64,000 bases of DNA from Phycisphaerales bacterium UBA3190 (GTDB taxonomy: Bacteria; Planctomycetota; Phycisphaerae; Phycisphaerales; UBA1924). Under the pieces are notes generated by a model that worked only from the letters and a program-made list of their open reading frames with translations, did no database searches and was not told where the DNA came from. Numbering within the stretch: position 1 is the first letter of the stretch; every line of letters starts with the position of its first letter. The DNA is taken from the NCBI GenBank assembly GCA_002364005.1, contig DEXG01000023.1, positions 94,702 through 158,701 of the forward strand, written 5' to 3'. A program made the translations under genes and the position numbers. Shown here in pieces: positions 3,713 through 35,490 of this stretch.

Positions 3713-3823
3713 TTCATAAGTCTCGTAAAAACAAGTGTTTATGCGAGGCTTTTTCTTTTGCACTACTTCCGTCCGCACTACAAAATGCCCTATGTAGTGC
3801 AGATTCGACCCAAATGTAGTGCA
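3671..3823 (+). repeat. att junction 1: 45-nt tRNA 3' half plus about 110-nt conserved island arm
   Basis: 3671-3715 is identical to 11845-11889 and 35338-35382. 3716-3823 is visibly homologous to 11890-11997 and 35383-35490 and contains four GTAGTGC/GCACTAC sites. Confidence 0.75.
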
Positions 3824-3867
3824 CTCTGCAACCTCTTGCCTTCCTTTGGTCGGGGCAGATATGTCGC

Positions 3868-4374
3868 TCAGCCGTTGATCGGGATGGCTCCTGATGCACG
3901 TTCGCCATCCGCCGTTTCGATCTCAATCCAAAGTGAAAGACCTGGTCTGAGTTCAGAAGGAACTTCGACTTCTGCGTGGTAGTCCACACTGTTCCACATT
4001 GCCTTGCTCTTCAGTGTTCCAGTTGCTGCCTGGTCTCCGATCCAGACTCGGATTGCAACCGGCTCAGGGCCCGCGGTGGTTTCGATATCGAGATGCATGA
4101 CTGCCCCTGGCTCGATATCTTCACCCATCTTGACGCTGAGTGTGGTACCGGCGATCGTCACAGAGCCGAGGTCGTATTCAGAACCATGATCATCCTGCTC
4201 CTCTTCAGCGTGGTTGTGGTCTTCGTGTCCGTCATCGCCGTGGTCGTGACCCTCGTGGTTGTCGTGATCCAAGTGGGAATCTGTGTCAGGTGCTTCCGAT
4301 TCGTTGCTACACCCACCGAGAAAGAGCATGCCGGTGATTGTGGAAGCGAGGAGCAGTTTAGTGAGATTGTTCAT
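3868..4374 (-). CDS. His/Asp-rich metal-binding lipoprotein
   Basis: Lipobox LFLGGC, then an HLDHDNHEGHDHGDDGHEDHNHAEEEQDDH tract and a beta-rich C-terminal domain. Last gene of the RND operon. Confidence 0.7.
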   Translation of the reverse strand: MNNLTKLLLASTITGMLFLGGCSNESEAPDTDSHLDHDNHEGHDHGDDGHEDHNHAEEEQDDHGSEYDLGSVTIAGTTLSVKMGEDIEPGAVMHLDIETTAGPEPVAIRVWIGDQAATGTLKSKAMWNSVDYHAEVEVPSELRPGLSLWIEIETADGERASGAIPING

Positions 4375-4402
4375 GTCAGTTTTCCTGAAAATTGAGTGGG
4401 TT

Positions 4403-7400
4403 TTAAGTGGACTGCTTCCGGCGGAGCTTGCCGGCTAGACGGGAACGAAGCGACGGCGAAGTTCGCTGTCGCGGTTCTGGGTTGTGCCCGAACACAAGCG
4501 AGTAGCCGGCGGGGACGACGATGAGGTTTAAGAACGTCGAGGTCAGCAGTCCCCCGAGCGTGACGATGGCCAGCGGCGCAAGCAGCTCGCTACCAGGCTC
4601 GCCAGCGGCGAGTGCGAGCGGAACCAGCCCGAGAGCAGCAGAGATCGCAGTCATCAGGATTGGCACAAGCCGCTCCATCGACCCTTGAACGATCGCTTCA
4701 CCCATCGGCACATCCTCGGCCTCCATGAGATGGTTGTAGTGATTGATAAGCAGGATGCCGTTACGCACCGCAATCCCAAACAGTGTGATGAATCCCACGA
4801 GACTTGCGATCGAGATCACCGGTGGAACATACCCGCCGCCGATACCGACTAGTGCCAATGTATTGCTGATCGCTCCGGCACCTTCGGTCAGATAGATCGA
4901 TGCGATACCGCCAATGAGCGCGAGCGGCATGTTGAGCATGACGAGGACAGCGGCTCGCATCGAGCCTGTAGAGATTTGGAGGAGCATGAGCATGATGAGT
5001 GCGACGGCCACACCAGCGACGAGGATCGTACGTGATGCGGACTGCTGCGCCTCGAACTGTCCGCCGTACGAAACTGTCATCCCGGCTTCTTGGACGATTG
5101 GATCAACACGTTCCTGCACTTGAGCGACGAGATCACCGAGGTTCGATCCTTCAGCGACATTGAGAGAAATGACCGCCTTCCGCTGAGCATTCTCGCGAGT
5201 GATTAAGTTACTCGAGCGCTCGGGTCCGATGTCAGCAACATCACTAAGACGCACGGTTGCGCCGCCGCGTCCGCGAAGTAGTAGATCACGCACCTGCCGC
5301 ACCGATTCTCGATCGGCGGCCGCGAGACGTACAACGATGTCATACTGGCGGACGCCCTGATTGACGGTGTCGACAACCTCTCCGTATATCGCTTCACGGA
5401 CCTGTTCGGCGGCATCCGCCGGGCTAAGACCAACTGCAGCCAATTCCGCGTGGCGGTAGCGGATCGGGAGCGAAGTAATCATGACTTCACGATTGGCATT
5501 CACATCCCTGGCACCCGGGAGCGATTGTAACTCGCCTTCGATGGCTTTGGCGACACGACGAAGCTCTGATAGGTCCTCGCCGAATACATTGATCGCGACG
5601 GCGGCGGGAGTTCCCGAGAGGACATGGCTCAGGCGGTGCTCGATCGGTTGGCCGACCATGGTCGTGATGCCTGGGATTGATGCGAGAATGCGGTCGATCT
5701 CATCACGCACCTCTACTCGTGAACGCCCTGCATCGACCGTGACCTCGACCTCCGAGTTACTGACCGGTTCGGCGTGTTCATCACGCTCGGCTCGTCCAGT
5801 GCGGCGTGACACCGACCGAACACCATCGATCTCGACGAGCTGCTTCTCCACCTCGGTCGCGAGCCGGTCGCTTTCGACAATCGATGTACCGGGAGGCGCG
5901 AGGAGAAACACGGTAAAAGTCCCTTCGTTGAAGGAGGGCAAAAATGATGTGCCGAATGTGCTCGCCAGAAGCAACGCTGCGGCGGTGACCAGGCCCGCAG
6001 CTCCCAGTACCCATGCTCGGAACTGGATCGCGGATCGAAGAGCCGGCTCATACCCACGCTTGAGTACACGCACGAGAAAACCGTCACGATCTTCGTGTGT
6101 CCCGCCGAGCTTACCCTTGAGCAGGAAGCGGCACATCGCCGGGACGACCGTGAGGGCGACCACAAGGGACGCGAGGATAGAAATCATGTAAGTCAGCGCG
6201 AGCGGCTGAAAGAATCGCCCCTCGAGCCCCTGAAGAAACAGGAGCGGCAGAAAGACCATCACAATGATCACTGTCGCAAAAACCATCGCGGGTCTGATCT
6301 CATTACTGGCGTCAAAAATCACCTCTGTAAATGGGCGACGATCGGATTCAACCATCGCACGGTTCTGTTTGAGGCGTCGAAAGACATTCTCTACATCAAT
6401 GATCGCGTCATCGACCAGAACACCAATCGCGACAGTCAAGCCACCGAGAGTCATTACATTGAGCCCAAGCTTCATCGCATCCATCATCAGCAGACCGACA
6501 GCGAGCGAAATTGGAATAGCCGTGAGCGTTATGAGCGTCGTTCGTAGATTCATTAGGAACAGCACAAGCACGACCAAAACGATGAGGATGGCTTCGCCTA
6601 GCACTTTGGTCACGTTATGGACCGCGCGATCGATGAAATGCGACTGCCGAACCACGTCTCGATTCAGTACAATGCCCGCAGGGAGCGTTGGCTCTATTTG
6701 ATCAAAGAGCGCATCGAGGTTGTCGGTAAGGGCGAGGGTGTTGGTGCCGGGCGATTTCTGGATCGACAAGATGACTGCCGGATTGCCACCTTCTGAGGCA
6801 GTGCCTCGTTTGAGCGCCGGACCCAGACGAACATCGGCAACCTGCCCAATCGTTACGGCTACACCTTCGTGGTACTTGATGACCGAGTTGGCGATGTCTT
6901 CCGACCCCGTCACTCGGCTCTGCTGACGAATCGGAATCTCGAAGTTATCGACATTGACGAGATAGCCGCCGCTTGCGGTACTATGCGCCCCGCCTGCGGC
7001 TTCAACCACATCAGTAATTGTGAGGTCGTAGAGACGTAGTCGCTCTTGGTTGACATTGACCTGATACTCCGGTAACTCGCCACCGATTGCGACCGCTTGG
7101 GCTACACCGGGTACGGAGAGAATCTTGTTCCGAAGATCGAAGTCGGCATAGGATCGGAGTTCCATCGGATCGACGGATCCATCTGGAGAAGAGAGTGAGA
7201 CGAGCATGATCTCGCCGGCGATTGATGTAATCGGGGTTATGAACGGCTCAACCTCGTCGGGGAGGTTTTCTCTTGCGGTAACGAGCCGCTCTGCCACGAG
7301 TTGCCGTGCGTCGTATAGATCGGTCCCCCAGTCCAAATCAACCCACACGATGCCGAGGCCGATGGCGCTGGCGCTGCGGACACGTCTGACACCTGTCATG

Positions 7401-7624
7401 CCATTCACAGCAGACTCGATGGGAAAAGTAACATACTGCTCGACCTCGTCGGCGGCGAGCCCGCCTGACTCGGCCATGATGGTCACGGTTGGTGCATTGA
7501 GCTCCGGGAATACATCCACGCTCATACGCGGGAGCCGGTAGCCGGCGTACCCGACAACCATAACGGCAGCGATGAGAACAAGCGATGAGTACTGGAGCGA
7601 GAATCGGATGACTGCTTTCAACAT
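4403..7624 (-). CDS. Heavy-metal efflux RND transporter, CusA/CzcA family
   Basis: 1073 aa with the typical 12-TM / two large periplasmic loop layout and RND conserved stretches (for example VDDAIIDVENVFRRL and FGIAVRNGILLINHY). Confidence 0.95.
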   Translation of the reverse strand: MLKAVIRFSLQYSSLVLIAAVMVVGYAGYRLPRMSVDVFPELNAPTVTIMAESGGLAADEVEQYVTFPIESAVNGMTGVRRVRSASAIGLGIVWVDLDWGTDLYDARQLVAERLVTARENLPDEVEPFITPITSIAGEIMLVSLSSPDGSVDPMELRSYADFDLRNKILSVPGVAQAVAIGGELPEYQVNVNQERLRLYDLTITDVVEAAGGAHSTASGGYLVNVDNFEIPIRQQSRVTGSEDIANSVIKYHEGVAVTIGQVADVRLGPALKRGTASEGGNPAVILSIQKSPGTNTLALTDNLDALFDQIEPTLPAGIVLNRDVVRQSHFIDRAVHNVTKVLGEAILIVLVVLVLFLMNLRTTLITLTAIPISLAVGLLMMDAMKLGLNVMTLGGLTVAIGVLVDDAIIDVENVFRRLKQNRAMVESDRRPFTEVIFDASNEIRPAMVFATVIIVMVFLPLLFLQGLEGRFFQPLALTYMISILASLVVALTVVPAMCRFLLKGKLGGTHEDRDGFLVRVLKRGYEPALRSAIQFRAWVLGAAGLVTAAALLLASTFGTSFLPSFNEGTFTVFLLAPPGTSIVESDRLATEVEKQLVEIDGVRSVSRRTGRAERDEHAEPVSNSEVEVTVDAGRSRVEVRDEIDRILASIPGITTMVGQPIEHRLSHVLSGTPAAVAINVFGEDLSELRRVAKAIEGELQSLPGARDVNANREVMITSLPIRYRHAELAAVGLSPADAAEQVREAIYGEVVDTVNQGVRQYDIVVRLAAADRESVRQVRDLLLRGRGGATVRLSDVADIGPERSSNLITRENAQRKAVISLNVAEGSNLGDLVAQVQERVDPIVQEAGMTVSYGGQFEAQQSASRTILVAGVAVALIMLMLLQISTGSMRAAVLVMLNMPLALIGGIASIYLTEGAGAISNTLALVGIGGGYVPPVISIASLVGFITLFGIAVRNGILLINHYNHLMEAEDVPMGEAIVQGSMERLVPILMTAISAALGLVPLALAAGEPGSELLAPLAIVTLGGLLTSTFLNLIVVPAGYSLVFGHNPEPRQRTSPSLRSRLAGKLRRKQST

Positions 7625-7627
7625 GAC

Positions 7628-9097
7628 TTAATCCTCCCCTTCGTGGAAGGTGCCGTCGGAGTGGAAGTGGCCACCCTTCTGGATCGATCCGCTGGTCGCG
7701 AGCATAAGTTGGAAAGCCCCGTCAAGGACTACCTCGTCGCCGTCACGAACCCCGCTGAGCAGCACGACCCACCGGCCGTCATCTTTACCGAGGTCCGCTT
7801 CCATGCGAATCGCTTCATTGGGATTGTCGGGAGCCCGACGGAAGATCACTGGTGAGAGACCATCACGCTGTACGGCAGCAAGTGGAATTGAAACCTCGGG
7901 AGAGGCCGTGGCATCGGTCACAATCTCAAGCTGAGCCGAGACGCCCGGGCGTGCCCAAGAACTGAGTTCGTCGGGGACAACGAAGAGCTCAAGCGTGCGA
8001 TCGTTGGGATCACCGGCAAGCCCGAGGGTGAGCGCGCCATTCATCGTGTCTTGCAACGGCACTGCTCGACCAACGGCGGTAGGCGTCGGGGGAACGATCC
8101 GAGCGAGCAGGCCGTCCTTGAGCACGCCAAGATCACTCTGTAGACCAGATGCCCGGAAACGGAGCCGGTCAGGCTGCACCACCGTCATCACAGGCGTTTT
8201 CTCATCGGCCCATGATCCGTTTGTCAGGCCCAACGCCTCCACGACACCCGCCTCGGTCGCGACGACCTCAATCGTGTTAACTGCAGCCCACCTGGGTTCA
8301 GTCCCGTGGTCTGTTTCGACTGTGGAAGCAAGTTGCTCTCGATCGAGCGAGACGATTGCTGATGCCGAATCCAGCAGGTAGTTCAGTCGAGCCGCTGAAG
8401 CCCGAAGATCCGCCTCGGTTTGCTGACGATTGGCGTGCAGTTCAGCTTTCTTCTCCTGCACGCTTGCAAGCTCTGCCCTGTTGCTCGCGACCGCCGCTCT
8501 CGCCTGGGCGAGTTCGTCTATACGGCCGCCACCCATCTCGCGCACGCTTCTTAGCTGGTCGACACGCTCGTTCCATACAGCAACACTCTCATGGAGACTC
8601 TCTTCGTGCTGTTCGTGTGCCGCAAGGAGCGGCTCAAATGTTTCGAGCCGCGCACCAAACCTCTGGATTTGTGCTTCCGCATCGGCGAGTTGCTGCTGCA
8701 TATCGCGCCACGACGGAGAGTCGATGCGGTAGAGTACATCCCCAGCTTCCACTCGTTGGAACTGCTCTGCGAGCAGTTCGACGCGGCCCGGGACTGCCGT
8801 GCGGTACTCTCGGCGCGCTGTAGGCAGATACTCGAAACGCCCTGGCACGCGGAGGGTCTGCTCGATCCGCCGACGTTCGACCTTGACAAAGCTGATACCA
8901 AGATTCGACCGTACTGCGGAAGGAATAGCGACGCGGTCGGTACCGGTTGCCATGGCCTCGGTTTCTGACGAGTGGTCGTGCCCGTCGTCCTCGCCGTGCT
9001 CGACAACTCTTTGCTCGATGGATTCTGATCGATCGCAGGACACGAGGAACAAGGCGGCGATCGAGAACACTACTAAAGCGATCATAGTCCGGATCAT
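7628..9097 (-). CDS. Efflux RND periplasmic adaptor (MFP, CusB/CzcB-like) with a His-rich N-terminus
   Basis: Signal/lipobox (LFLVSC), a long coiled-coil hairpin and beta-barrel domains. Lies 3 nt upstream of the RND gene. Confidence 0.9.
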   Translation of the reverse strand: MIRTMIALVVFSIAALFLVSCDRSESIEQRVVEHGEDDGHDHSSETEAMATGTDRVAIPSAVRSNLGISFVKVERRRIEQTLRVPGRFEYLPTARREYRTAVPGRVELLAEQFQRVEAGDVLYRIDSPSWRDMQQQLADAEAQIQRFGARLETFEPLLAAHEQHEESLHESVAVWNERVDQLRSVREMGGGRIDELAQARAAVASNRAELASVQEKKAELHANRQQTEADLRASAARLNYLLDSASAIVSLDREQLASTVETDHGTEPRWAAVNTIEVVATEAGVVEALGLTNGSWADEKTPVMTVVQPDRLRFRASGLQSDLGVLKDGLLARIVPPTPTAVGRAVPLQDTMNGALTLGLAGDPNDRTLELFVVPDELSSWARPGVSAQLEIVTDATASPEVSIPLAAVQRDGLSPVIFRRAPDNPNEAIRMEADLGKDDGRWVVLLSGVRDGDEVVLDGAFQLMLATSGSIQKGGHFHSDGTFHEGED

Positions 9098-9582
9098 CCC
9101 TCACCCCCTTCACCATCCGCGACCTGCGCGAATGCTTCTTGGAGGCGATCGACGAGATCACTCACCGAAGGCACGCCATCGGGTCCTTCATACATACGGC
9201 AGCCCATCGAAGGAGTCTTCGGTGCTTCCGTGCCGAACAGGTCGGATTCATTCACTAGAACCGTCGGAGCGGGATATCCGCGGCGGAGGTCCGATGAATC
9301 CAAAGACTGCTGATCGATCTGCACAAGATCCAAGTCTCGACCGACTACTCTGATCGCCTGCTCGAGCCTCTCTTTCATGAGTGGTGTGAGCGGGCAGCCT
9401 TCGAATCCGAGAAGTGTGATTGACATGGCTGTATCTCTATCGCTAGGAATAATGTTTGCTGGAATTTGACTGTTTGTGGTCACATGAAGCTGTCGTTGAT
9501 CCGTTGCCCCTGTGCAGGCGGCCAGTGTCAGCGGCAGAAGTGCTGCTAGAACGATCGCGTTCGTCTGTTCCAAATATTTCAT
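9094..9582 (-). CDS. Small lipoprotein, possibly thioredoxin-like fold
   Basis: Lipobox LTLAAC, with ATGA-type overlaps to both neighbours (9094/9097 and 9579/9582). Single CP motif (GFEGCPLTP). Confidence 0.6.
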   Translation of the reverse strand: MKYLEQTNAIVLAALLPLTLAACTGATDQRQLHVTTNSQIPANIIPSDRDTAMSITLLGFEGCPLTPLMKERLEQAIRVVGRDLDLVQIDQQSLDSSDLRRGYPAPTVLVNESDLFGTEAPKTPSMGCRMYEGPDGVPSVSDLVDRLQEAFAQVADGEGGEG

Positions 9583-11063
9583 GGGGATGCCTCCTCGGCT
9601 GGCGTGTCGCCTCGCGCCGCGGTGTATGGTGTGTTTGTTTTTGTCGTGTCATATTCGGTCGCTGGCTCGATAGGCGCGGGAGGTTTCGGCTGATCCGGCC
9701 CGAGCAGTCTCATACGCTCGATTTCAGCATTCAATTCGGCTAGGCGCAAATCAAGCAGCTGGCTCTTGACCTCGAAGCGACGCGATACCGTCTCCAGCAG
9801 AATCAGCGTGTCAACTTCGCCGAAATCGATGAGCTTTTCAACTTCCCTCGACTGTTCCTCAAGCATCGGGACCAACTGCGTTTCGAACGCTTCGAGTTGG
9901 GTGCCAGCTGCAATAATCGCTGCATTCGTTGTGGCAAGCTCACGTGTGAGTTGCTCGAAGGTGATTTCCGCTGCGGCGCGAGCAACTTCGCGCTGTGCTC
10001 TCGCTTCAGCAATTCCAGCTCGGTTTGCAATAAGAATCGGAATCGGAAGTGATAAGCCAAGCAGAAGGCGGTCGTCGTTGTCTTCGCTGCCGTATCCACT
10101 GCCGATCGTGATATCCGGGTACTGCTTGCGGATCTCCAGGCGGAGTGTTTCCTCTGCGGTTTGGTACTCTGCACGACGCACCGCGAGCGATGTATTCGCC
10201 TCAATAAGCCGATGCAACTCGTCCGTGAACGACACTGACTCGCTGGGTGAGAGCGAGGGGATGAGCTCAATGTCAATTGATGGCGGTAAGCCAAGCAACC
10301 CAAGCAGATCAACTCGGGCTTGGGACGCCGCAAACTCAGCCTGAGCAAGTCTGCCGCGAGTCTGCACGAGTTCGGCACGTATGAGCCGGGCCTCGATACG
10401 GGTAAGTTCGCCGGCCTCTTCGAGCCTGTCGGTGATGGATCCGATCCTCTCGACCTGCCCGATTACGTCGCTCAGCAGACGAACGCGTTCATCGGCTACC
10501 GTCCACTCGGCCCACGCCGATCTGACACGAGCACGCATGGTCCACTCCGCGTCCACGATGCGCCTTAGCTCGGCCTCGTAGGAAGCTCCGGCGCGATCTT
10601 TGGCCACGCCCAACCGTCCGGATATCGGAACTGTGAAGCTGAGTGCTAGGCCATACTCGAACGGCCCCGAAGGCGACAAGATCTCAGCACCGTCGAAGCC
10701 GAACTCTGGGTCTTCCCATAGCCCCGCGGTTTCGTAGTCGGCGAGCGCAACGCCTGCCGCAAGCCTTGCCAATCGGAGATCGGCGTTGTAGAACAACGCG
10801 AGGACTTCACCCTCCGCCGATGACAAACCATCGGTTGGATCAAAGTTATCTGGCGTATCGCCACCAGATTCGTCCAGGCGGTTGAGGAATGCGTCGATCG
10901 AATCTGCGGCGTCTAGCCGGCTCTCAATTGTGTCTCGATGTGATGTGAGGTCGAGCGGTGCTCGCTCGTAGCTTTGGCAGCCGCCGAGCAATCCACCGGC
11001 CGCCGCCGCGGCGATGCCGGGCCAAGCCACCCGCCTCAAGAGCGGGGTTGTTGAGATGTCCAT
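9579..11063 (-). CDS. Outer-membrane efflux protein (TolC/CusC family)
   Basis: 494 aa with a duplicated alpha-helical/beta-barrel OEP pattern. First large gene of the operon. Confidence 0.9.
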   Translation of the reverse strand: MDISTTPLLRRVAWPGIAAAAAGGLLGGCQSYERAPLDLTSHRDTIESRLDAADSIDAFLNRLDESGGDTPDNFDPTDGLSSAEGEVLALFYNADLRLARLAAGVALADYETAGLWEDPEFGFDGAEILSPSGPFEYGLALSFTVPISGRLGVAKDRAGASYEAELRRIVDAEWTMRARVRSAWAEWTVADERVRLLSDVIGQVERIGSITDRLEEAGELTRIEARLIRAELVQTRGRLAQAEFAASQARVDLLGLLGLPPSIDIELIPSLSPSESVSFTDELHRLIEANTSLAVRRAEYQTAEETLRLEIRKQYPDITIGSGYGSEDNDDRLLLGLSLPIPILIANRAGIAEARAQREVARAAAEITFEQLTRELATTNAAIIAAGTQLEAFETQLVPMLEEQSREVEKLIDFGEVDTLILLETVSRRFEVKSQLLDLRLAELNAEIERMRLLGPDQPKPPAPIEPATEYDTTKTNTPYTAARGDTPAEEASP

Positions 11064-11147
11064 AAATTTAATTTCCTATCTGAGTGAACGACAAACCGCC
11101 CAATGCAGCTGGAGCTGCTCAGGGCACGATTTGGACTCAGACAGGAT

Positions 11148-11642
11148 TTAGAGAATCAAACGAGTAGTTGATACGATTGCAAGCCGCTGGGCACCACCTG
11201 GATCGAACCACTGCGGAATGCCCGGTGGACCGGTCCAAGACAGACCGTGCCCAAGTTCAGTGACAATCCAAGTTGGGGTTGGATGAACAGCATTCGTCTG
11301 CATCGAACCAATTTCTACTCTCGGAAGGCTGAGAAGCTCGACCAACTCGATTTCGATATCAATACAGGCACAATCCTCGCCGTGCTGATCAGCTGGCATC
11401 GGTCCAGGCAAGCCTTCTGCATGTCCGCAAGCAAGCTCGCACAATGCAAGCATCTCAGATGGCTGATGCTCGTGGCCGCCACCCAGACATAAAACGACTG
11501 CACCACCCAGACCTCCGTAGATAGCCTGAAAGCCGATGATCATGATCAAGAAGATGGAGAGCGAACGGTTATGCACGATACGAGTATACCTCGGCAATGG
11601 CGATGGGGTTGCTTGAGAGTCAGATGCTGAAGTGCAATTCAA
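11148..11642 (-). CDS. Cys/His-containing membrane protein (DUF2946-like guess)
   Basis: One TM helix followed by CLGGGHEHQ, CELACGH and HGEDCACID. Sits at the head of the efflux operon. Confidence 0.5.
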   Translation of the reverse strand: MNCTSASDSQATPSPLPRYTRIVHNRSLSIFLIMIIGFQAIYGGLGGAVVLCLGGGHEHQPSEMLALCELACGHAEGLPGPMPADQHGEDCACIDIEIELVELLSLPRVEIGSMQTNAVHPTPTWIVTELGHGLSWTGPPGIPQWFDPGGAQRLAIVSTTRLIL

Positions 11643-11676
11643 TTGCCACGGTTTCCCGTCTACCGGAGCTTCAGGT

Positions 11677-11997
11677 CAAACTGTCTTTGACGATGCGCTC
11701 TCTTCCTGATGTAGTGCAAAACCCCACAACAAAGCCCGCATTCGAGATCTCGGACCATGCGATCGCACCCAAGGCCTTGTCGCGGATCGAGTTGGGACGA
11801 CCTGGGATCAATCGGCGCGAACCAACATTCAGCGTTTGCCTTAGTTCCCAAGCTGAATGTCGTCGGTTCGATCCCGATCACCCGCTTTCGTAAGCTTCTC
11901 GCATGCAAGTGTTTATGAGGGCTCCGTTTTTTTGCACAACACCCGTTCTGCACTACAAATGATCCTTTGTAGTGCAGAATCATCCAAATTGCAGTGC
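11677..11997 (+). repeat. att junction 2: conserved upstream arm + 45-nt tRNA 3' half + conserved downstream arm
   Basis: 11677-11844 aligns with 35170-35337. 11845-11889 is identical to the tRNA 3' half. 11890-11997 aligns with 3716-3823 and 35383-35490. Confidence 0.75.
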
Positions 11998-12041
11998 TTG
12001 TCTTTGCGAGCGGATAATGGTTAAAGACCGTTCTCGATTTG

Positions 12042-14633: not shown

Positions 14634-14660
14634 AGTCCTTACATCGGTCTGTCGATCACG

Positions 14661-17427: not shown

Positions 17428-17493
17428 GGTGATTATTCTCCCGCAATGCATACATACTAGAAATTGGTGACGATGCTGGTGGTAAAATATTTC

Positions 17494-18123
17494 TCATTGT
17501 GCACTTGTGTAAAGCGAAACCCTTGCTTTCTTGAGCATGCCAATGAAGGCCAAGCCGGGCTCCTTGAACTCGCTCAGCCGCAGGGTCTGCCAGTGGCGAT
17601 CGAGGTATTCATCAAGGTAGGATATAACCTGCGAGAGAAGGATCACATGGCAATGTCGCCCAACACTCTGGTCGTGCGTTGATCCGAAAGCGACCAGACG
17701 GACCCGGTGCCCCGATTGAGTCTGTGCGGCTCCTCGACTCACAAGTTCGGTGGCTAATGTCTCCGCGTGGTCGTAACTGCAGCATCCGAACCTCGTTAAG
17801 GCTGCACGCAGTACAGCGGGTTCCGTGGCTCCTCTATTGAGAGTTGCCTTTCCCTCTTTGACCTCACCGACGAGCATGTCGGCTCCGCCATCGGTGAGCG
17901 CGAGTGCTGGGTCAACCTCACCGACTGCAACGTCCTGGGTAGAGGATCTACCGCGCCTTGGGATCAACCGAGCGGCATCGGGAAATCGAAATGCCAAAAC
18001 GTCGATGTCAGTCGCGGTTCGGTGGATGCCCGAGCGACCTGATTCGACGATTGGGAATTCGGTGACAGTGAAGTAGCCATTGACCCTAAGGTAAGCCTGC
18101 ACCAGTGCGACTGCGTTGTCCAT
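17494..18123 (-). CDS. Hypothetical protein with a PD-(D/E)xK nuclease-like motif
   Basis: DIDVLAF ... LVGEVKEGK spacing is typical of the restriction-endonuclease fold. No other recognisable domain. Confidence 0.5.
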   Translation of the reverse strand: MDNAVALVQAYLRVNGYFTVTEFPIVESGRSGIHRTATDIDVLAFRFPDAARLIPRRGRSSTQDVAVGEVDPALALTDGGADMLVGEVKEGKATLNRGATEPAVLRAALTRFGCCSYDHAETLATELVSRGAAQTQSGHRVRLVAFGSTHDQSVGRHCHVILLSQVISYLDEYLDRHWQTLRLSEFKEPGLAFIGMLKKARVSLYTSAQ

Positions 18124-18144
18124 TGTGATACTCCTTCGAGTAAT

Positions 18145-18594: not shown

Positions 18595-18633
18595 GGCTCA
18601 TGTCCTATTGAGGGGATATATGTAAATCGCTTC

Positions 18634-22942: not shown

Positions 22943-22963
22943 GCGATGTCGTAGCTCTATCTA

Positions 22964-24486: not shown

Positions 24487-24487
24487 C

Positions 24488-27275: not shown

Positions 27276-27421
27276 GCTGCCCCTTCGTTCGCGCGTTTCT
27301 GGCCGTCGCTTTGCTGGTAGATGGTGCCCAGCCGAACCGAGCTCGCCTCGACGCACAACGAGGGCATGAGATGCCCCGCTGTGCGTCGGTGCGCTTGGCA
27401 TGGCCGGATAGGTGCAGCCCA

Positions 27422-27736
27422 TTAGCTCTCCGCGTTGACTTCGAGCACGCGGTTCATCGTGCCGAACTCGTTGGGAGCGCAGCCCTCACAGCCGTTGTAC
27501 GGGCGATCGCAACCGGCCTCACAGCACCACGCGCCGTCAACAACGAACTTGTACTCGTAGCGGCTCGGTGGGAGGTCAAGCTCGATCTCCCACCAACCCT
27601 GCCTGTCGCGCGTCATTGCGTGTGTGGTCGTGCTCCATTCGTTGAACGAGCCGGCGACAAATACTTCGCTCGCGTCAGGGGCAGCGAGTGTGATGCGTGA
27701 GACGGTGGTCTGGGTTGCTTGCTTGGGCATTGTCAT
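27422..27736 (-). CDS. CBM48 / AMPK-beta glycogen-binding-like (early-set) domain protein
   Basis: VFVAGSFNEWS ... WWEIELDLPPSRYEYKFVVDG pattern. Confidence 0.7.
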   Translation of the reverse strand: MTMPKQATQTTVSRITLAAPDASEVFVAGSFNEWSTTTHAMTRDRQGWWEIELDLPPSRYEYKFVVDGAWCCEAGCDRPYNGCEGCAPNEFGTMNRVLEVNAES

Positions 27737-27755
27737 GCTCCTTTCAGTAATGGTG

Positions 27756-28583
27756 TCAGTCGTCCTTGCTCTGGCCAGTCATGTCCATGGGGCGGGTTCC
27801 TGCGAGGGTTTGCCGTTGCTCAACAGTCAGAATCTGGGCAGCCTCGCCCACCGCTCTGATAAACGCGAGACGCTTCTCGGCACGCAGCGCTTCGATGGCG
27901 CGGACCTCGGTCTCGATGCGATTGATGTCGGGGGTAGACGCGGCCGTCAGCGACCACAGCACTTCTTCGAGGCCCTCGATGCGGCGGTCGTAATCCGACT
28001 GGGCGAGGATGATTTCCTGCTTCGTTTCGTTCAGACGAGTTTGTTGTTCGAGCGTCAGGTCGATGTGCTCGTTGTGGTCGAGGAAGAAGCCGGTAGCGCC
28101 GATGTGGTAGACGTGCGATGCGCCAGGAAAGCCCGGAAGGTCAGAGCGAACTTCCATCGCATCGGTGGTGCCATCGACATCTTTTGCCTTCGGACCCATG
28201 CCCATCATGCCACCCATGCCTCCCATGGAGTTGGCATGGGAGGGCCCCATTTCTCCCATGGCGTTCATGCCCATCTGACGCTTACCACCCATGTCGCCCA
28301 TGCCACCCATCGCGTTCTGCTTCTTGGAGGTGCGCGCGGGCGCGCCGTCCGAAGTCGATGAAACCGGTCGGTGATCGAGCTGTAGCGAGGCTTCAAGCTG
28401 GGCGACCTGAGCGCGGAGTGCTGCGAGCTCTTTCACGATGTCAGCGTTTCCGCTGATTTCATGCGTTTCGTGTTTGGTGTGGTCCCCATCTCCGTGGTTC
28501 TGTGCGATTGCCGGAGTTGCGAACATGGTGGCCGCGAACAGCAGCGGAATGAGGAAGGATATTTGTGCCTGAGAGTTTTTCAT
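27756..28583 (-). CDS. Periplasmic Met-rich LTXXQ (CpxP/Spy/ZraP-like) heavy-metal stress protein
   Basis: Signal peptide, MGGMGDMGGKRQMGMNAMGEMG...MGGMGGMMGMG tract, and two LTXXQ motifs (LTLEQ, LTVEQ). Confidence 0.8.
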   Translation of the reverse strand: MKNSQAQISFLIPLLFAATMFATPAIAQNHGDGDHTKHETHEISGNADIVKELAALRAQVAQLEASLQLDHRPVSSTSDGAPARTSKKQNAMGGMGDMGGKRQMGMNAMGEMGPSHANSMGGMGGMMGMGPKAKDVDGTTDAMEVRSDLPGFPGASHVYHIGATGFFLDHNEHIDLTLEQQTRLNETKQEIILAQSDYDRRIEGLEEVLWSLTAASTPDINRIETEVRAIEALRAEKRLAFIRAVGEAAQILTVEQRQTLAGTRPMDMTGQSKDD

Positions 28584-28800
28584 GATTCAGCTCCTTGTCA
28601 GGGGTAAACACGCCAACCGTCCTACTGGCCTCTGAATGCCACGGCGGCCAATTGACACACTAAAGATGCATATACTATCTTCTTTGAATGTATTGGGCAA
28701 CCGTGCTTTATCACTTGCCTGCGTGCTCACGCCTCCGATTGCCCATATCCTTCGAAGACGTTGATGAACAAAGTGGCCGCAATGGTCTCGAAAGGTCTGG

Positions 28801-29256
28801 ATGATTTCACGGCAGGTAGCAATGGCGGCGGTTTGCATGGGGCTCATCGGTCGCGATGGGTCTGACGAGTGCATGCAGATTCCCGAGCTTGTTGAGCTGA
28901 CCGGGATTTCGCGGCCAACTCTTGGCAAGGTCGTCAATGCACTAGCCCGGAAGAAACTCGTGAAGACCCAGCGTGGTGTCGGCGGCGGGGTGCGATTAGT
29001 CCGTTCTGTCGAGCAGGTCTCCCTGTACGACCTGTGCGTGGCCTTTGACGACCCGGTGATCGAGTGCCAATGTTCTTTCGGTTTCGGCCACTGCGCCGAA
29101 GAGGGCCCGTGCCCCCCCGGATGCCTATGCGTCGCGCAGCAGTCGAAGCAGTTGGAGTACCTCAAGAACACGAGCGTGTTTGATATCGCTGAAATGATGT
29201 TGCCGAGGCTCAAGAAGGCTGCTCGGTCAGCGAAGCGAGCGAAGCAGAATCGCTGA
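28801..29256 (+). CDS. Rrf2-family transcriptional regulator with a Cys-rich C-terminal region
   Basis: wHTH (IPELVELTGISRPTLGKVVNALARKKLV, GVGGGVRL) and a Cys cluster CQCSFGFGHCAEEGPCPPGCLC. Divergent from the LTXXQ gene. Confidence 0.85.
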   Translation: MISRQVAMAAVCMGLIGRDGSDECMQIPELVELTGISRPTLGKVVNALARKKLVKTQRGVGGGVRLVRSVEQVSLYDLCVAFDDPVIECQCSFGFGHCAEEGPCPPGCLCVAQQSKQLEYLKNTSVFDIAEMMLPRLKKAARSAKRAKQNR

Positions 29257-29317
29257 GCCTGATCCCTGCCCAAGTCGCCTGGGGATGCCCGCATTCCGGT
29301 TTCAGCTGGTTCTCGCA

Positions 29318-30211
29318 TCATGGTAGCAGATACTCCCATCCATAGACAAGCGAACCGCCGAAATGACCCGCGACTCCAACCAAAGCGGCAGACACCAGCA
29401 ACGCAGCCGTAGCGAATCGGCTCATCCTCTTGCATCTCGCGCGTTGTTCAACGGCGAACCACGCGATGCCTGCAGCAACCGCGACCGAGATCCCCAGTGC
29501 GCGGTGCCACCAGAACACCCACGACAACGTGCCCGAGTAATCGCTCGCAGACCCATGAAGCAAACCAAGCAGCACTGCCGCGACGGCCGAAAGCGCTCCT
29601 ACTGCTGTGAGCAGTCGAATGACCCCCTCGTTCCTCAATTGCTCGCGGGCGAGTCCTACAACCTCGACAAGCGCCCCGAGGAGCAGGAACGCGATCGGGA
29701 AGTGGATGACTACGACGTGGAGTCGACCGAGCATCGCTGTGAGTGACACGCCATGGTCTGTAGCGTGGTCGTGGTTCTCTTCGGGCGACTCACCGTCGTG
29801 ATCGTGGCCACCATCAGTCGCGCCGAGCCGGTCCGCGTCTGGCTGCCCGGCGACAGCAGCATCCTCAGGATGATCGTGATCATGCCCCTCCGCTTCGGGC
29901 TTGCTCTTGTCCTCCGGCATTGCCACAGGCATGACCCTCGCCAACGACTCAGTAAGAGCCTCCGGATTCTGTTTGAATCGGAGCACGCAACGCCGACAGC
30001 AGAAATACACACGCGTGCCATCATGGTCAGTGAAAAAGCTTGGATCGACCGCCTCATCCGGCGTCACCGGACACAGGGTATTGGCCAACCCCGTCTCTCC
30101 CCCCGTTCCGTCCGGGGAGGAGATCTGGGCCGCCAATACTGAGGCATCCACAATGAACACCAGCAACAGGAGCAGCGGTACCAAGAAACGTCGACGGTTT
30201 ATGGTGTCCAT
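29318..30211 (-). CDS. YHS/TRASH-domain + multi-TM (DUF2231-like) protein
   Basis: Signal peptide, CPVTPDEAVD...YFCCRRCVLRF (YHS-type), a His/Asp-rich linker and four C-terminal TM helices. Confidence 0.75.
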   Translation of the reverse strand: MDTINRRRFLVPLLLLLVFIVDASVLAAQISSPDGTGGETGLANTLCPVTPDEAVDPSFFTDHDGTRVYFCCRRCVLRFKQNPEALTESLARVMPVAMPEDKSKPEAEGHDHDHPEDAAVAGQPDADRLGATDGGHDHDGESPEENHDHATDHGVSLTAMLGRLHVVVIHFPIAFLLLGALVEVVGLAREQLRNEGVIRLLTAVGALSAVAAVLLGLLHGSASDYSGTLSWVFWWHRALGISVAVAAGIAWFAVEQRARCKRMSRFATAALLVSAALVGVAGHFGGSLVYGWEYLLP

Positions 30212-30228
30212 GCGTATTTTTCCTCGTG

Positions 30229-31242
30229 TTAGCTGTCGCTGTGACCGTGACTGCCATCGCTGTGATTCTCATGACCCTCCCGACCGTGGTCACTATCCAT
30301 CTGTTCTTTCTCGACCGAGAGATTACCCCGCGCGTCGAGGATGGACTTCCACGCCTTATCGAGTTGTGCGAGGTACTGTGCTGGATTCTCGATCACCTTG
30401 GGTTCGCACATTGCACAACAGAACCGGATGAGGCGGCCCGCAAGGACGATCTCGGAGGGCTCACCCATAGACCCGAGCTTGCCCCCGATCATGCACTTGT
30501 CGAGTGGGTAGTCCGCCCTCTGAGTATCGGCGGCGGCCCTATCAATCTCGGCGATGTAAGCGCCCGGGTCCTTTTTGAACTCCTTGACGCAGGACCTGCA
30601 GCAGAGGCGTATGAGCCGGTTGGCGTGGATCAGGTTGATCGCGATGTCCTCGCCATCCTCTGAGAGGGGCTCGCCTGAAATTGCGCAGGTCGTCATCGGG
30701 TAGTACGGAAGCTGATCCTCGATCATCTGCTCGTCGATCTTCTTGAAGTACTGTTCCTTGTTCTTCTCAAACCGACCCACGCACATATTGCAGCAGAACC
30801 GTACCTCGCGCCCGTCGATCTCTTTGACGACCGGGTCACCCATCGATCCCAGCGCCTCACCCGAGACCGGGCAGGCGGTGAGGGTGTAGGGCTGGCTCTT
30901 GACGGCGGTTGGGACGACGGTTTGCGCATCGGCTTGCGCGTGGTGTTCACCGGGCTCGTTGCCTGCTTTGGCGAGGGCAACGAACGCGTCGCGTTTCGAC
31001 TCATCCCACCCCATAAACTCCTTGTCGCACCCCGGGCAGCAGAACCCGACGGTCTCGCCCTTGTATACGACCGAGGGGACCCCCTCGACGATGGGCTCTT
31101 TCCCGATGGGGCACATGGTGTTCACGGGTTTTTTGTCGTCGTGCTGCGCGTGGTTGGCGTGGGAGTCGTGGTGGTCTTGCGCGAGGGATACAGGCACGCA
31201 GTAGGCGCACGCAATGACAGCGATTATCACTGAAGTTTTCAT
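30229..31242 (-). CDS. Periplasmic protein with four tandem YHS/TRASH metal-binding domains
   Basis: Four repeats of the CP..G.....(F/L)CC..C pattern, plus a His-rich C-terminus (HENHSDGSHGHSDS). Start at the signal peptide MKTSVIIAVIACAY. Confidence 0.8.
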   Translation of the reverse strand: MKTSVIIAVIACAYCVPVSLAQDHHDSHANHAQHDDKKPVNTMCPIGKEPIVEGVPSVVYKGETVGFCCPGCDKEFMGWDESKRDAFVALAKAGNEPGEHHAQADAQTVVPTAVKSQPYTLTACPVSGEALGSMGDPVVKEIDGREVRFCCNMCVGRFEKNKEQYFKKIDEQMIEDQLPYYPMTTCAISGEPLSEDGEDIAINLIHANRLIRLCCRSCVKEFKKDPGAYIAEIDRAAADTQRADYPLDKCMIGGKLGSMGEPSEIVLAGRLIRFCCAMCEPKVIENPAQYLAQLDKAWKSILDARGNLSVEKEQMDSDHGREGHENHSDGSHGHSDS

Positions 31243-31297
31243 GTGGAACTCCTTTGATTTTGCCCGGGTCGTCCGAGCGTGTTGGAAAAACGAAGCC

Positions 31298-31481
31298 TGA
31301 GCTCGGCCCATCCGCAGTAGAGGATGGGCACGACGAACCAGGTCAGGGATGCGACGGCCATCCCACCGAAGGTCGGGATGGCCATGGGGATCATGATGTC
31401 TGACCCGCGCCCCGAGCTTGTGAGCACGGGCAGCAGCGCGAGGATAGTTGTCGCGCTGGTCATGACGGCGGCGCGGATGCG
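31298..31481 (-). pseudogene. Remnant of the C-terminal end of an RND (CusA/CzcA-type) pump
   Basis: RIRAAVMTSATTILALLPVLTSSGRGSDIMIPMAIPTFGGMAVASLTWFVVPILY matches the last two TM helices of RND pumps. No upstream part of such a gene is present. Confidence 0.6.
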
Positions 31482-31705
31482 TGAGGGCACAGATGCCGAA
31501 GGCGACGGTGGGTTGAACGAGCGAGTCAGCGTGTGCGATGGGCGCGGGGCGAGCGGGTCACTCGAGCACCATATGAGCGTCAAAGACGAGGCGCACGCGA
31601 ACAGGATGGTCCGGTTCATGGCAGATGTCCTAGTGAGGTCTGGTCCGATTGAAAAGCATCGTGGAACGGTACGCGCAGCGCGTACCGTCCCTCAGGGACG
31701 CGTCT

Positions 31706-32140
31706 CTATCGTTGCCAGACGCCCAGGAGTGCCTGTGTCTGATTGTGCGAGAACCCCGCGCGGATCGAGCCCTTCCGGGCGATCGAGATCAGACGCGTGG
31801 GGAGTTCAGTGATGATGATCTGGATGGATGCGGGCGGCCCGCGAACCATCTGCAGCGAGTCGCGATCTCGCGATGGCATCGGGAGTGGCTCGTTGGGTGA
31901 CCGGTCATCGATGGGTTTGATGCCGCAGGTGCAAGGGCCGTTGCTCATCTTACAGAAGTTGTGGACGCTCTTGGTGTCGCAGCACAATACCTCGCGGATC
32001 TCTTCATGACATTCTGTCATCACGCACTGATCTGATCCCATCGCGAGCGCGTGGGACTTCGACGAGCTCCAAAGGGAATCCATCCCCCGCATCCCGAATA
32101 GGGATGCCGCGATAAGCAGGATGAGGTGGATGCGGGTCAT
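31706..32140 (-). CDS. Secreted Cys-rich hypothetical protein
   Basis: Signal peptide, then CVMTECHEEIREVLCCDTKSVHNFCKMSNGPCTCG. Divergent from the haloperoxidase-like gene. Confidence 0.45.
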   Translation of the reverse strand: MTRIHLILLIAASLFGMRGMDSLWSSSKSHALAMGSDQCVMTECHEEIREVLCCDTKSVHNFCKMSNGPCTCGIKPIDDRSPNEPLPMPSRDRDSLQMVRGPPASIQIIITELPTRLISIARKGSIRAGFSHNQTQALLGVWQR

Positions 32141-32439
32141 GTGCAGTTTCAGTCTATCGATTCGGGTTCATCCAAGCAACAATCAAGAAGGCGAAAGTAT
32201 TTCCAAAAAAATATTTCACCCGAGTTACGGAGGTAAACATGTGACAACTTTCGCGCGTGCGATATATATAGTAGCGAGGTTATCGGCGCGGTGGTCTATC
32301 GCGGTCATCTCTTCTTGAGTTGTGGCCAAAATCTGCCAGGCAGGGGCTTGAGTCACGAAACCAAATCTGTAGAGTGGTAGGGGGTATTTCTCGGGATCGA
32401 CACCCAATATCCTTCACTTTGGCCTCGTGGAGCAGCGTC

Positions 32440-34608
32440 ATGAATCTTTTGCTTTGTCAAGTTACCCTGTTCGCGGGGTTGGTCGGGTTGCCTACATCTG
32501 CCGACGCACAGACTTCCCGTTCACCCGCAAACCCGGATGCGTTGACAACGACCAAGATGCGTCCGCTCGAGCATCAATCCGCAGCGGTCCGACGCGATCT
32601 CGCAGAGCAGCTTGGGATCGAGCATTCTGTTGCGCGGATGTGGAGCGAGTTGTTGCTCGATTCGATTCGACGCGACTTTGCTCGCCCGACGATCCATTCG
32701 CGCAACCTGTATCACACATCCGCAGCGATGTGGGACGCGTGGGCAGCGTTCGAGCCCGGGACGGATCAGGTGTTCCATAACGAAACAATGATCGCTGACG
32801 ATGTGCAGCTCGCTAGAGAGGAAGCAATCAGTTATGCGATGTATCGCATCCTTCGTCATCGTTTCGCGCTCTCCCCAGCCGCCATCGAGATGTACCCTGA
32901 GTATGACATGCTCATGGGCGAGTTAGGGTACGACATCTCCATCACGGACACTGCTGGAGATACCCCAGCGGCCCTGGGGAATCGCATCGCAGAATCGGTC
33001 ATCCAGTTTGGTCTTACGGACGGGTCGAACGAGCAGCTCGATTACGCGAACCTGTACTACGAGCCAATCAATCCACCGTTGCTACCGGACTTCCCGGGCA
33101 ACCCGGACATGCTCGATCCGAACCGTTGGCAGCCGCTTGCACTCGAGTTCTTCGTGGATCAATCGGGCAACCCGATCCCAACAGGGTACCCGGACTTCCT
33201 GAGCCCGGAATGGGGCGAAGTGACCCCGTTCGCGATGGACCAAGACGATGTGCAGATCAAGCAGCGTGACGGGTTCACCTGGCAAATCTGGCACGACCCG
33301 GGAGATCCGCCATACATTAACGGCGAACCCGCAGAAGACCTGCGTTACAAGTGGGGATACGAAGTGGTCGTTACCTGGTCTTCACACCTCGATCCCGCGA
33401 CGGGGACCATGATTGACATCTCTCCCGCGACATTCGGGAACGCGCCTCTTCCATTGATCGCGGAGGAGACGGACTTCTATGACAAGCTCAACGGTGGTGA
33501 TTGGGGTGAGGGGTACGATGTGAACCCGAGCACCGGGTTGCCTTACGAGCCCCAGATGGTGCCCTTGGGTGATTATGCGCGTGTGCTCGCGGAGTTCTGG
33601 GCGGATGGTCCGGATTCAGAGACACCTCCGGGGCATTGGTTCTCGGTGCTTCATTATGTCACCGATCACCCGGAGCACAACGGGCAGTTCATGGGACAAG
33701 GCCCAGTCCTCGATCCGCTCGAGTACGACGTGAAGTCATACCTTGCGCTCGGTGGTGGGATGCACGACAGCGCGATTTCTGCGTGGTCCGTGAAGGGGTA
33801 CTACGACTATCCTCGCCCGGTTTCTTCCATCCGGTACATGTGCGATCGTGGTCAATGCTCTGATCCGAATATGCCGAGTTTCCACCCAGAGGGGATCAAC
33901 CTCATCCCTGATTACATCGAAGTGGTGACAACTGAGACTACCGCACCAGGTGAGCGTCACGCACACCTTGCTGGTAGCGAGGGCAAGATCGCGGTCAAGG
34001 CTTGGAAGGGTCCTGACTTCATCAACGACCCTGATACAGATGTCGCCGGTGTAGGGTGGATCCTCGCTGATAACTGGTGGCCTTACCAGCGTCCAAGTTT
34101 CGTCAGTCCCCCGTTTGCGGGTTATGTCTCAGGGCACTCGGTGTTCTCTCGCGCCGCAGCGGAAATCATGTCTATGTTGACTGGGAGCGAATACTTCCCA
34201 GGCGGTATGGGTGAGTTCGAAGCGCCCATGAATGAGTTTCTCGTCTTTGAGGACGGCCCATCCATGGACATCACCCTGCAATGGGCGAAGTACGCGGACG
34301 CGTCCGATCAAACATCCCTCTCGCGTATCTGGGGGGGGATCCACCCGCCTGCGGATGATCTCCCCGGTCGGTATATGGGTCTCGATATTGGTCCCGAAGC
34401 GTTCACAGAAGCACGTCGGTACTACAACGGGCTCAAGTCCTGTCCCGCTGATTTTATGCCCGACAGCACTTTGAACTTCTACGATGTCAGCGGGTTCATT
34501 GTAAGGTACCTAGCAGGTGATTTGCTCGCCGACATGAATGGCGATCTTCATCTCGACGCGATGGATGTGATGGACTTCCTCAACTCATATTCTGATGGCT
34601 GTCCATAA
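32440..34608 (+). CDS. Secreted PAP2-superfamily / vanadium-haloperoxidase-like protein with a C-terminal dockerin-like module
   Basis: PAP2 motifs (KGYYDYPRP, YVSGHS, SRIWGGIHPPADD). C-terminus CPADF...DMNGDLHLDAMDVMDFLNSYSDGCP. Start at signal peptide ATG 32440. Confidence 0.8.
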   Translation: MNLLLCQVTLFAGLVGLPTSADAQTSRSPANPDALTTTKMRPLEHQSAAVRRDLAEQLGIEHSVARMWSELLLDSIRRDFARPTIHSRNLYHTSAAMWDAWAAFEPGTDQVFHNETMIADDVQLAREEAISYAMYRILRHRFALSPAAIEMYPEYDMLMGELGYDISITDTAGDTPAALGNRIAESVIQFGLTDGSNEQLDYANLYYEPINPPLLPDFPGNPDMLDPNRWQPLALEFFVDQSGNPIPTGYPDFLSPEWGEVTPFAMDQDDVQIKQRDGFTWQIWHDPGDPPYINGEPAEDLRYKWGYEVVVTWSSHLDPATGTMIDISPATFGNAPLPLIAEETDFYDKLNGGDWGEGYDVNPSTGLPYEPQMVPLGDYARVLAEFWADGPDSETPPGHWFSVLHYVTDHPEHNGQFMGQGPVLDPLEYDVKSYLALGGGMHDSAISAWSVKGYYDYPRPVSSIRYMCDRGQCSDPNMPSFHPEGINLIPDYIEVVTTETTAPGERHAHLAGSEGKIAVKAWKGPDFINDPDTDVAGVGWILADNWWPYQRPSFVSPPFAGYVSGHSVFSRAAAEIMSMLTGSEYFPGGMGEFEAPMNEFLVFEDGPSMDITLQWAKYADASDQTSLSRIWGGIHPPADDLPGRYMGLDIGPEAFTEARRYYNGLKSCPADFMPDSTLNFYDVSGFIVRYLAGDLLADMNGDLHLDAMDVMDFLNSYSDGCP

Positions 34609-35169
34609 AGCGACTTAATGACTTAGACATGCGCCTTTACGAGTGTTCCGAGATATATGCTCTAATTTCGTGACCATGCAGTCGTACAGGCTCGCTTGGC
34701 CACATGCTAAGAATGTTATATTTTCAGCACAGTTGAGTTTAGCCAGGCAGAATCGATTCAGGAGGGCGTCTGCGAGCAGGAGCTTTATGTCGAACGAGCA
34801 GTTTCAATTCCTTTTTGAGATTCGATGTCTCAATCCATGCTCCTTTAGGATGTTGCGTATTGGTGCCACTTGAAATAGACTGGTGCCATATCGACGAGTA
34901 CCACAAGGGCGTTGATGTAGAAGCAACGGGCGGACTTTCCATGAACGTCGGTTAACCCCTATGAATTTCGTAGGCTCTTAAATTGCGTGCTACAAACATC
35001 ATCTGCTATCACGCATTTTGAACGACGCTGTGCCGCCCCAGCACAATGAGCATCTGCGAAGTAACGCGGATTCCATGGTGGACACTCACTGCACACTAGA
35101 ATTGCAATTTCGCGACTATGTAATACAAAATGAACTCAGAAACATCGTCAGTATGTTGTTCGACCCTGC

Positions 35170-35490
35170 CAAACTGTCATTGACGGCGCGTTCACATCCT
35201 GATGTAGTGCAGAACCCCGCAACAAAGCCCTCAATCGAGCCCTCGGGCCATGCGATCGCTCCCAAGTCATTGTCGCGGATCGAGTTGGGACGACCTGGGA
35301 CCAATTGGGACATGCCAACATTCAGCGTTTTCCTTTGTTCCCAAGCTGAATGTCGTCGGTTCGATCCCGATCACCCGCTTTCACAAGTCTCGCTTAAACA
35401 AGTGTTTATGCGAGGCTTGTTCTTTTTGCACTACACCTGGCCGCACTACAAATGGCCCTTTGTAGTGCAAATTCGTCCCAAATGTAGTGC
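35170..35490 (+). repeat. att junction 3: conserved upstream arm + 45-nt tRNA 3' half + conserved downstream arm
   Basis: Collinear with 11677-11997. The 45-nt core 35338-35382 is identical to the tRNA 3' half. Contains five GTAGTGC/GCACTAC sites. Confidence 0.75.

Follow-up and report, generated by a model that had tools for sequence, protein, structure and literature searches.

The window analysed here, a stretch of 64,000 nt from Phycisphaerales bacterium UBA3190 (contig DEXG01000023.1, positions 94,702 to 158,701), carries a tandem array of three genomic islands at the 3′ end of a tRNA-Gly(CCC) gene. Islands 1 and 2, which hold copper and cation-efflux genes, are best read as non-autonomous elements resembling cis-mobilizable elements (CIMEs), stacked by site-specific recombination beside island 3, an integrative and mobilizable element (IME); we give this reading a probability of about 65%. 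Comparison with related genomes shows that islands 1 and 2 are hitch-hikers that have recently moved between distant bacteria, and we infer that the integrase of island 3 acts on them and that they are still able to excise.

Attachment cores and recombination genes of the array

The integration target is tRNA-Gly(CCC), located at 3641–3712 on the plus strand (ARAGORN; Rfam RF00005, 71.5 bits). Its 3′ 42 nt, together with 3 further nt, make up a 45-nt core whose first bases are the anticodon loop, TTCCCAA. The core occurs three times in the window, each time on the plus strand: copy 1 (3671–3715) forms the left attachment site (attL) of the whole array, reading tRNA-core-P′1, while copy 2 (11845–11889) and copy 3 (35338–35382) are the internal junctions P1-core-P′2 and P2-core-P′3, where P′ and P denote the left and right arms of the numbered islands. 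A fourth copy lies 5 kb beyond the right edge, at window-equivalent positions 69049–69093 (C9:163750). All four are exact (45/45 nt), and no fifth copy was found in the whole 3.4-Mb assembly with up to six mismatches allowed. The order is tRNA, island 1 (3716–11889, 8174 nt), island 2 (11890–35382, 23493 nt), island 3 (35383–69093, 33711 nt, with the window holding the part to 64000) and chromosome. Since the chromosomal flanks on both sides are collinear in a genome of the same genus (G089), where they surround a different 24-kb island, and G203 (JBICHR010000004.1) shares the right flank at 89% DNA identity, the 65-kb array is an insertion at tRNA-Gly(CCC). Another same-genus genome, G181, which has a single core copy, was considered as an empty site and rejected, its neighbourhood being rearranged and uninformative.

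By Pfam, island 1 holds a ZrgA-like gene, a CzcCBA-type RND efflux operon (4403–11063, minus strand) and two small unknown open reading frames (ORFs). Island 2 encodes HMA-MauE, an APC permease, CopB, a multicopper oxidase and a P-type ATPase, along with a PP2C/cytochrome/reductase cluster, HD, LTXXQ and YHS/TRASH proteins and a PAP2/haloperoxidase-like protein. The sequence-only reading had claimed that neither island contains a recombinase, transposase, relaxase or replication gene, and this claim stands: across the 37 ORFs of the two islands, Pfam returned metal-efflux/copper, redox and signalling genes only, with no gene of these four kinds and no coupling protein or type IV secretion system (T4SS) gene. 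Six-frame hidden Markov model (HMM) searches with PF00589 (Phage_integrase), PF00239 (Resolvase), PF00665 (rve) and PF01609 (DDE_Tnp_1) gave no match in the window. The six-frame PF00589 search (E ≤ 0.01) likewise failed to report the real integrase of island 3, so that its negatives alone are weak evidence, and a family-specific profile was therefore added for islands 1 and 2. Built from 20 homologues of the integrase and run unfiltered against 1030 stop-to-stop frames of at least 40 aa across the array, this profile had the integrase gene itself as its sole match (2e-223), with the runner-up at E 0.31. A tblastn search with the island 3 integrase as query gave no significant match in islands 1 and 2 (best E 2.4), no HTH_17 homologue was found there, and neither tblastn nor the family profile picked up integrase or helper-backbone remnants in either island. 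An HMM check for a divergent recombinase, which the earlier reading had proposed, has thus turned up none in islands 1 and 2.

It is very improbable that the islands are autonomous through a novel type of recombinase encoded by one of their unannotated ORFs. Several ORFs do lack a Pfam or NCBIfam match, the candidates being those at 17494–18123 (209 aa), 11148–11642 (164 aa) and 9094–9582 (162 aa). However, the unannotated ORFs of the two islands are short, resemble signal-peptide or membrane proteins and contain many metal-binding residues, and none of them is common to islands 1 and 2 or shared with other islands that have the same type of right arm (type 2, described below), one of which, on the metagenome contig L034, holds an RND efflux operon and a CDF fragment only.

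The enzyme that could serve all three islands lies just outside the window. The integrase had been predicted to sit at the unseen right end of island 3, next to a fourth att copy, and both are present there: a minus-strand ORF of 414 aa, at window-equivalent positions 67677–68921 (L006:4379–5623), ends 127 nt from core 4. The gene was first located by position, then backed by NCBIfam, homologues and fold, and it is the only recombinase found across the whole array. Against Pfam it gives N-terminal SAM-domain matches below the curated cut-offs, and against NCBIfam it matches XerA at 9.5e-13, under that model's cut-off. Its homologues number 427; the named ones belong to Planctomycetota and are called 'site-specific integrase', and some have precomputed PF00589 matches. 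Sequence searches of the PDB with the integrase and with the family profile found nothing. An alignment-based AlphaFold model (predicted local distance difference test, pLDDT, 81.6) has as its top Foldseek matches in the PDB the Tn1549 integrase, full-length lambda Int, XerA and Cre (probability 1.00, E to 2e-9), where the match to lambda Int extends over the arm-binding domain. By its modelled fold, the protein is a divergent heterobivalent tyrosine recombinase with an arm-binding N-domain. Catalytic positions were assigned by our own motif alignment, in which K283, R357, H381 and Y391 are invariant in the 20 homologues (51–93% identity) and Tyr354 occupies the position where the first catalytic His is expected.

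Arm sites and recurrence of the islands

Islands 1 and 2 were said in the sequence-only reading to keep both arms and the 45-nt core, and they do, with an exact core on each side. The left arms P′1 (3716–3822), P′2 (11890–11997) and P′3 (35383–35490), all on the plus strand, share 76–87% mutual identity, and in each of them a 7-mer, GTAGTGC or its reverse complement GCACTAC, is placed at +89, +104, +123 and +145, counted from the core start. P′1, which contains a terminator-like hairpin, has four perfect 7-mers (GCACTAC twice, GTAGTGC twice) and is 86.8% identical to P′3, where all four are likewise perfect; in P′2 two are perfect and two have one mismatch. The window contains 17 occurrences of the 7-mer where 3.7 would be expected, and 12 of the 17 lie within 150 nt of a core. 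The right arm of island 3, P3, has two GTAGTGC sites, at −68 and −45, an arrangement repeated beside close integrase homologues elsewhere, so placed that GTAGTGC is found between integrase gene and core in island 3 and in the loci of these homologues.

Islands 1 and 2 have right arms of a separate kind, termed type 2. P1 (11677–11844) and P2 (35170–35337), both on the plus strand, are 85.5% alike over 166 nt and carry one perfect GTAGTGC each, at −134. Their last feature is ACATTCAGC, the inverse of the core bases GCTGAATGT; 10 nt separate it from the core. In essence, the type-2 arm is a conserved unit of ~170 nt with one arm-type site and a 9-bp inverted core copy one helical turn further out. 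P2 is taken in by a conserved non-coding module at the right end of island 2 (34869–35337, plus strand), which shows 93–95% identity in four other genomes or contigs whose cargo differs. The low-GC tract at 34609–35169, or the type-2 arm, was considered as a decayed integrase gene and rejected, with both tblastn and the family profile silent; the tract is instead a conserved non-coding module, with 93–95% identity in the four other loci.

A further arm-like sequence lies in the chromosomal flank immediately right of core 4, at window-equivalent positions 69094–69195 (L006:5796–5897). It is a degenerate left arm, 78% identical to P′3 over 102 nt and with the same terminator hairpin, in which no 7-mer is intact. 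It is present in G203 and absent from the same-genus genome G089, and probably represents what is left of an older island.

The type-2 right arm occurs in six other Phycisphaerales genomes or contigs (G201, G202, G203, G204, L034 and L036), and across genomes it is 93–100% conserved despite differing cargo; one search pattern for the type-2 junction matched five Phycisphaerales genomes, and a second matched three metagenome contigs. No PF00589 or integrase-family match was found inside any fully sequenced type-2 island. In G201 (JAJDDO010000026.1) the tRNA is followed by an island 1-like segment (94% identical) and an island 3-like element with a 93% identical integrase, and in G202 (CAXBJM010000007.1) a P2 arm is followed by an island 3-like element with a 94% identical integrase. 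G203, the closest relative, carries a different IME, a 33-kb integrase-less mosaic with a P2 arm, and the same right flank as the present genome. The arrays differ by whole islands, with islands 1, 2 and 3 here, 1 and 3 in G201, 2 and 3 in G202, and another IME plus a P2-arm island in G203. Counting each sequence joined at the core to a type-2 arm as a partner, there are five for P2 and two for P1, seven in all.

Two metagenome contigs extend this series. L034, from metagenome Ga0189276, is 8930 nt long and reads P2 arm, core, P′1-like arm, RND/CDF efflux cluster and P2 arm, while L036, a 114-kb chromosomal contig from the same metagenome, reads P2 arm, core and chromosome. The first 123 nt of L034 are identical to the start of L036, such that the arm-core-left arm and arm-core-chromosome junctions are both present in the sample. 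The two ends of L034 overlap exactly by 33 nt, and an excised circle was considered; it is not counted as evidence of excision, since two islands in tandem that share the same arm would explain the break points at least equally well.

The strongest sign of recent movement comes from G204 (OZ246976.1), a complete chromosome in which the tRNA is followed by a 16.4-kb integrase-less island ending in a P2 arm (C1:2636233 to C1:2652634). This island consists of the island 1 body, 98.8% identical over 7978 nt, plus 8 kb with a second efflux operon of the L034 type and the P2 arm. The G204 genes that flank the tRNA share 61–68% protein and 67–73% DNA identity with their counterparts in the present genome, which lie on other contigs. 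Given an island at 98.8% beside flank proteins at 61–68%, island 1 has recently crossed between distant lineages and landed at the same tRNA. Within the G204 island the internal arm-core-arm junction and ~600 nt are missing, which looks like accretion followed by fusion through deletion.

Several observations weigh against the preferred reading of the array. Their right arms are not homologous to that of island 3, with one perfect 7-mer against two; left of the crossover region they have TTTGCCTTAG or TTTTCCTTTG, unlike island 3; and the inverted half-site of the type-2 arms is shifted by ~10 nt. No integrase of island 3's family was found anywhere in the complete chromosome of G204, and such islands can therefore sit stranded. 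The integrase family itself has an invariant Gly260 at the position expected for the first catalytic arginine, Arg I. Here, R246, R280 and R281 are also invariant in the 20 homologues, and one of them could, judging from the alignment, substitute for Arg I; the absence of Arg I has a precedent in IntDOT of CTnDOT, and the present family appears to function without the first catalytic arginine. Finally, no VirB4 gene, the marker sought for a T4SS, was found among the ORFs of island 3 or in the genome, which is 91% complete.

Some of these points would suit a history in which islands 1 and 2 integrated in the past and are now inert fossils with dead att sites, island 3 alone being mobile. The single perfect 7-mer and displaced half-site of the type-2 arms, the two degenerate 7-mers of P′2, the stranded island of G204 and its apparent origin by fusion of two islands with loss of the internal junction can all be read in this way. 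So can an orphan C-terminal AcrB fragment of an RND pump in island 2 (31239–31619, minus strand; ACR_tran profile positions 959–1018 of 1021), which is a deletion scar and documents that deletions have occurred. Yet fossil att sites would sit poorly with internal cores that are all exact over 45 nt, with the four perfect 7-mers of P′1, with a type-2 arm that stays 93–100% conserved while the cargo varies, with an island 1 that is 98.8% identical in a different genus, and with seven partners joined to P1 or P2 exactly at the core. We consider this explanation unlikely.

A recombinase other than that of island 3 could also move the islands in trans, be it a tyrosine integrase from another locus of the genome or one on a transient element. 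The tRNA-Gly(CCC) gene does attract a variety of enzymes in this bacterial family: among 200 family genomes at least three kinds of integrase are found there, some adjacent to the tRNA (480–610-aa frames) and others at the far end, about 11 of the 200 sampled genomes have at least two copies of the core, with islands carrying other integrase types or none, and integrase-less islands of 2–12 kb occupy the gene in G160, G024, G035 and G026. Given these varied integrase types, tRNA-Gly(CCC) is a general hot spot. Moreover, the type-2 arm is unlike island 3's arm, and the P2-arm island of G203 adjoins an IME whose integrase is just 52% identical. This G203 element, whose integrase adjoins a complete tRNA-Gly copy (C4:209128–210517), is a sister IME with att identity spanning the whole tRNA, but its arm repeat differs, with the 7-mer GTAGTCG and the repeat AAATGTAGTCGA, which occurs twice. 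The GTAGTGC of islands 1 and 2 is instead the motif found beside integrases at least 79% identical to that of island 3, the islands lie directly beside an island 3-type IME in three genomes, and the remaining PF00589 genes of the present genome are either on different contigs or separated by over 110 kb. On balance, mobilization by such an enzyme seems distinctly improbable, and the preferred reading remains that islands 1 and 2 are CIME-like passengers served by the integrase of island 3.

Within that preferred reading, the conserved and separate right arm hints at a dedicated non-autonomous lineage. Tentatively, and with somewhat less than even expectation, we propose that type-2-arm islands form such a lineage in Phycisphaerales, with an arm that has become adapted to use an unrelated IME's integrase, and are not products of decay. 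If true, metal-efflux operons spread between genera by means of an enzyme encoded elsewhere, in the manner of miniature inverted-repeat transposable elements (MITEs) or integron cassettes.

Island 3 and a proposed route of mobilization

Island 3 has the genes expected of a helper that supplies both recombination and DNA processing. Beside its left arm lies a helix-turn-helix (HTH) gene of the HTH_17/excisionase family (35554–35850, plus strand; PF12728 at 4.2e-16; TIGR01764, 58.6 bits), a candidate directionality factor. The island further encodes a DUF499/DUF3780/DUF1156 defence cassette, ParA (46356–47450), ArdC (48526–49563), a MobF/TrwC relaxase (51120–53957) and a coupling protein (54455–55972; TraG-D_C domain, 25.2 bits), with AbiEii and an SMC-like ATPase to the right of the window; several of its ORFs have no assigned identity. 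With a relaxase and coupling protein and no T4SS found, island 3 is an IME and not an integrative and conjugative element (ICE). The related IMEs of G201 and G202 share a backbone of ParA, ArdC, relaxase, coupling protein and integrase at 89–95% protein identity, and they retain the HTH gene beside the left arm while the defence cassette is absent; the HTH gene is therefore part of the element's backbone and not of the defence system.

Island 3 also contains a match to a group II intron (RF00029, domains V–VI) at 62725–62828 on the minus strand, which scores 48.1 bits where the gathering score is 40. Upstream of it, the minus strand shows no evident ORF for a reverse transcriptase, and the intron may be ORF-less or truncated.

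In the mechanism that we propose, island 3 would be the array's only supplier of recombination machinery, providing the integrase and probably the excisionase-family HTH protein. The N-domain of the integrase would bind the GTAGTGC 7-mers in the arms, while its core domains would work on the 45-nt core where it begins with the anticodon loop. The most plausible route is recombination between core 1 (tRNA-core-P′1) and core 4 (P3-core-B′), which would excise the whole 65-kb composite; because P′1 has four 7-mers spaced as in P′3, this event would need helper-type arms only. The ~32 kb of metal cargo would then travel in cis with the origin of transfer (oriT) of the IME, transferred via the MobF relaxase and coupling protein of island 3 through the conjugation pore of another element. 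Indirect evidence for such excision and transfer comes from the swapping of partners at the core and from the 98.8% identity across genera. No repeats longer than 30 nt were found between islands 1 and 2 and the backbone of island 3, and hence there is no second oriT copy, which favours mobilization in cis over mobilization in trans. Recombination involving the internal cores could release single islands or leave them behind. Lone excision of island 1 or 2 is doubtful, as the atypical type-2 arm may render it inefficient or impossible.

Relation to known accretion systems

The arrangement itself is already known as CIME accretion, and islands 1 and 2 add a good new case to it. The sequence-only reading had invoked this model as established for streptococcal ICEs; its central part, att-bounded islands that lack recombination genes beside an integrase-bearing element, is borne out, while the partner turns out to be an IME and not an ICE. 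The array is a case of the accretion model outside Firmicutes in which target, cores, arm sites, integrase, candidate excisionase, relaxase and passengers have all been identified. It places ~32 kb of copper and cation-efflux genes of an uncultured marine planctomycete in genus-crossing units without recombination genes. For genome annotation, it implies that an island need not encode an integrase to be mobile, and that a six-frame PF00589 search can miss a real enzyme.

CIMEs are defined by the retention of attL and attR and the absence of integration and transfer genes (PMC5704250 section 2.3; PMC6323972). Islands 1 and 2 answer this description, being att-bounded and devoid of integration or excision genes and of conjugation or mobilization genes. 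The model case is the accretion-mobilization of the ICESt1/ICESt3 type in Streptococcus thermophilus (Pavlovic 2004; Bellanger 2011), as recounted in the same two sources. Like the S. thermophilus CIMEs, islands 1 and 2 stand in tandem with an integrase-encoding element, and the composite could in principle excise and transfer in cis. Growth by tandem accretion and internal deletion is likewise part of the S. thermophilus model, and the G204 island resembles such a fusion. Unlike in S. thermophilus, the host here belongs to Planctomycetota (Phycisphaerales), the islands are inserted at a tRNA-Gly gene and partnered by an IME in which no T4SS was found, the right arm is a separate conserved type and not the helper's arm, and no remnant of an integrase or helper backbone is present, leaving no sign of an origin by decay of an integrase-bearing element; mobilization is here a proposal from sequence. 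Streptococcal CIME-IME and IME-IME tandems at the 3′ ends of tRNA and other genes have also been reported (Guedon et al. 2017, PMC5704250), in a work that generally presents the integrase-less partners as having decayed. In contrast, the islands described here belong to a lineage with its own arm, found at at least seven loci and integrase-less wherever a whole island can be read.

The putative recombination machinery has its closest likeness in the lambda-type systems. As in lambda Int and the Tn916/Tn1549 Int proteins, the model of the island 3 integrase comprises a three-stranded arm-binding N-domain, a core-binding domain and a catalytic domain. Repeated 7-mers in both arms and a small excisionase-family gene complete the resemblance, while the integrase is, unlike those of the lambda type, too divergent for PDB sequence searches to find a match and has Gly at Arg I. 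A second parallel is offered by integron cassettes, which are cargo units without a recombinase, each with a recombination site and dependent on the integrase beside the array. Unlike these cassettes, the units described here measure 8–33 kb, are bounded by two-armed att sites on the 3′ end of a tRNA, and lie beside a transferable IME.

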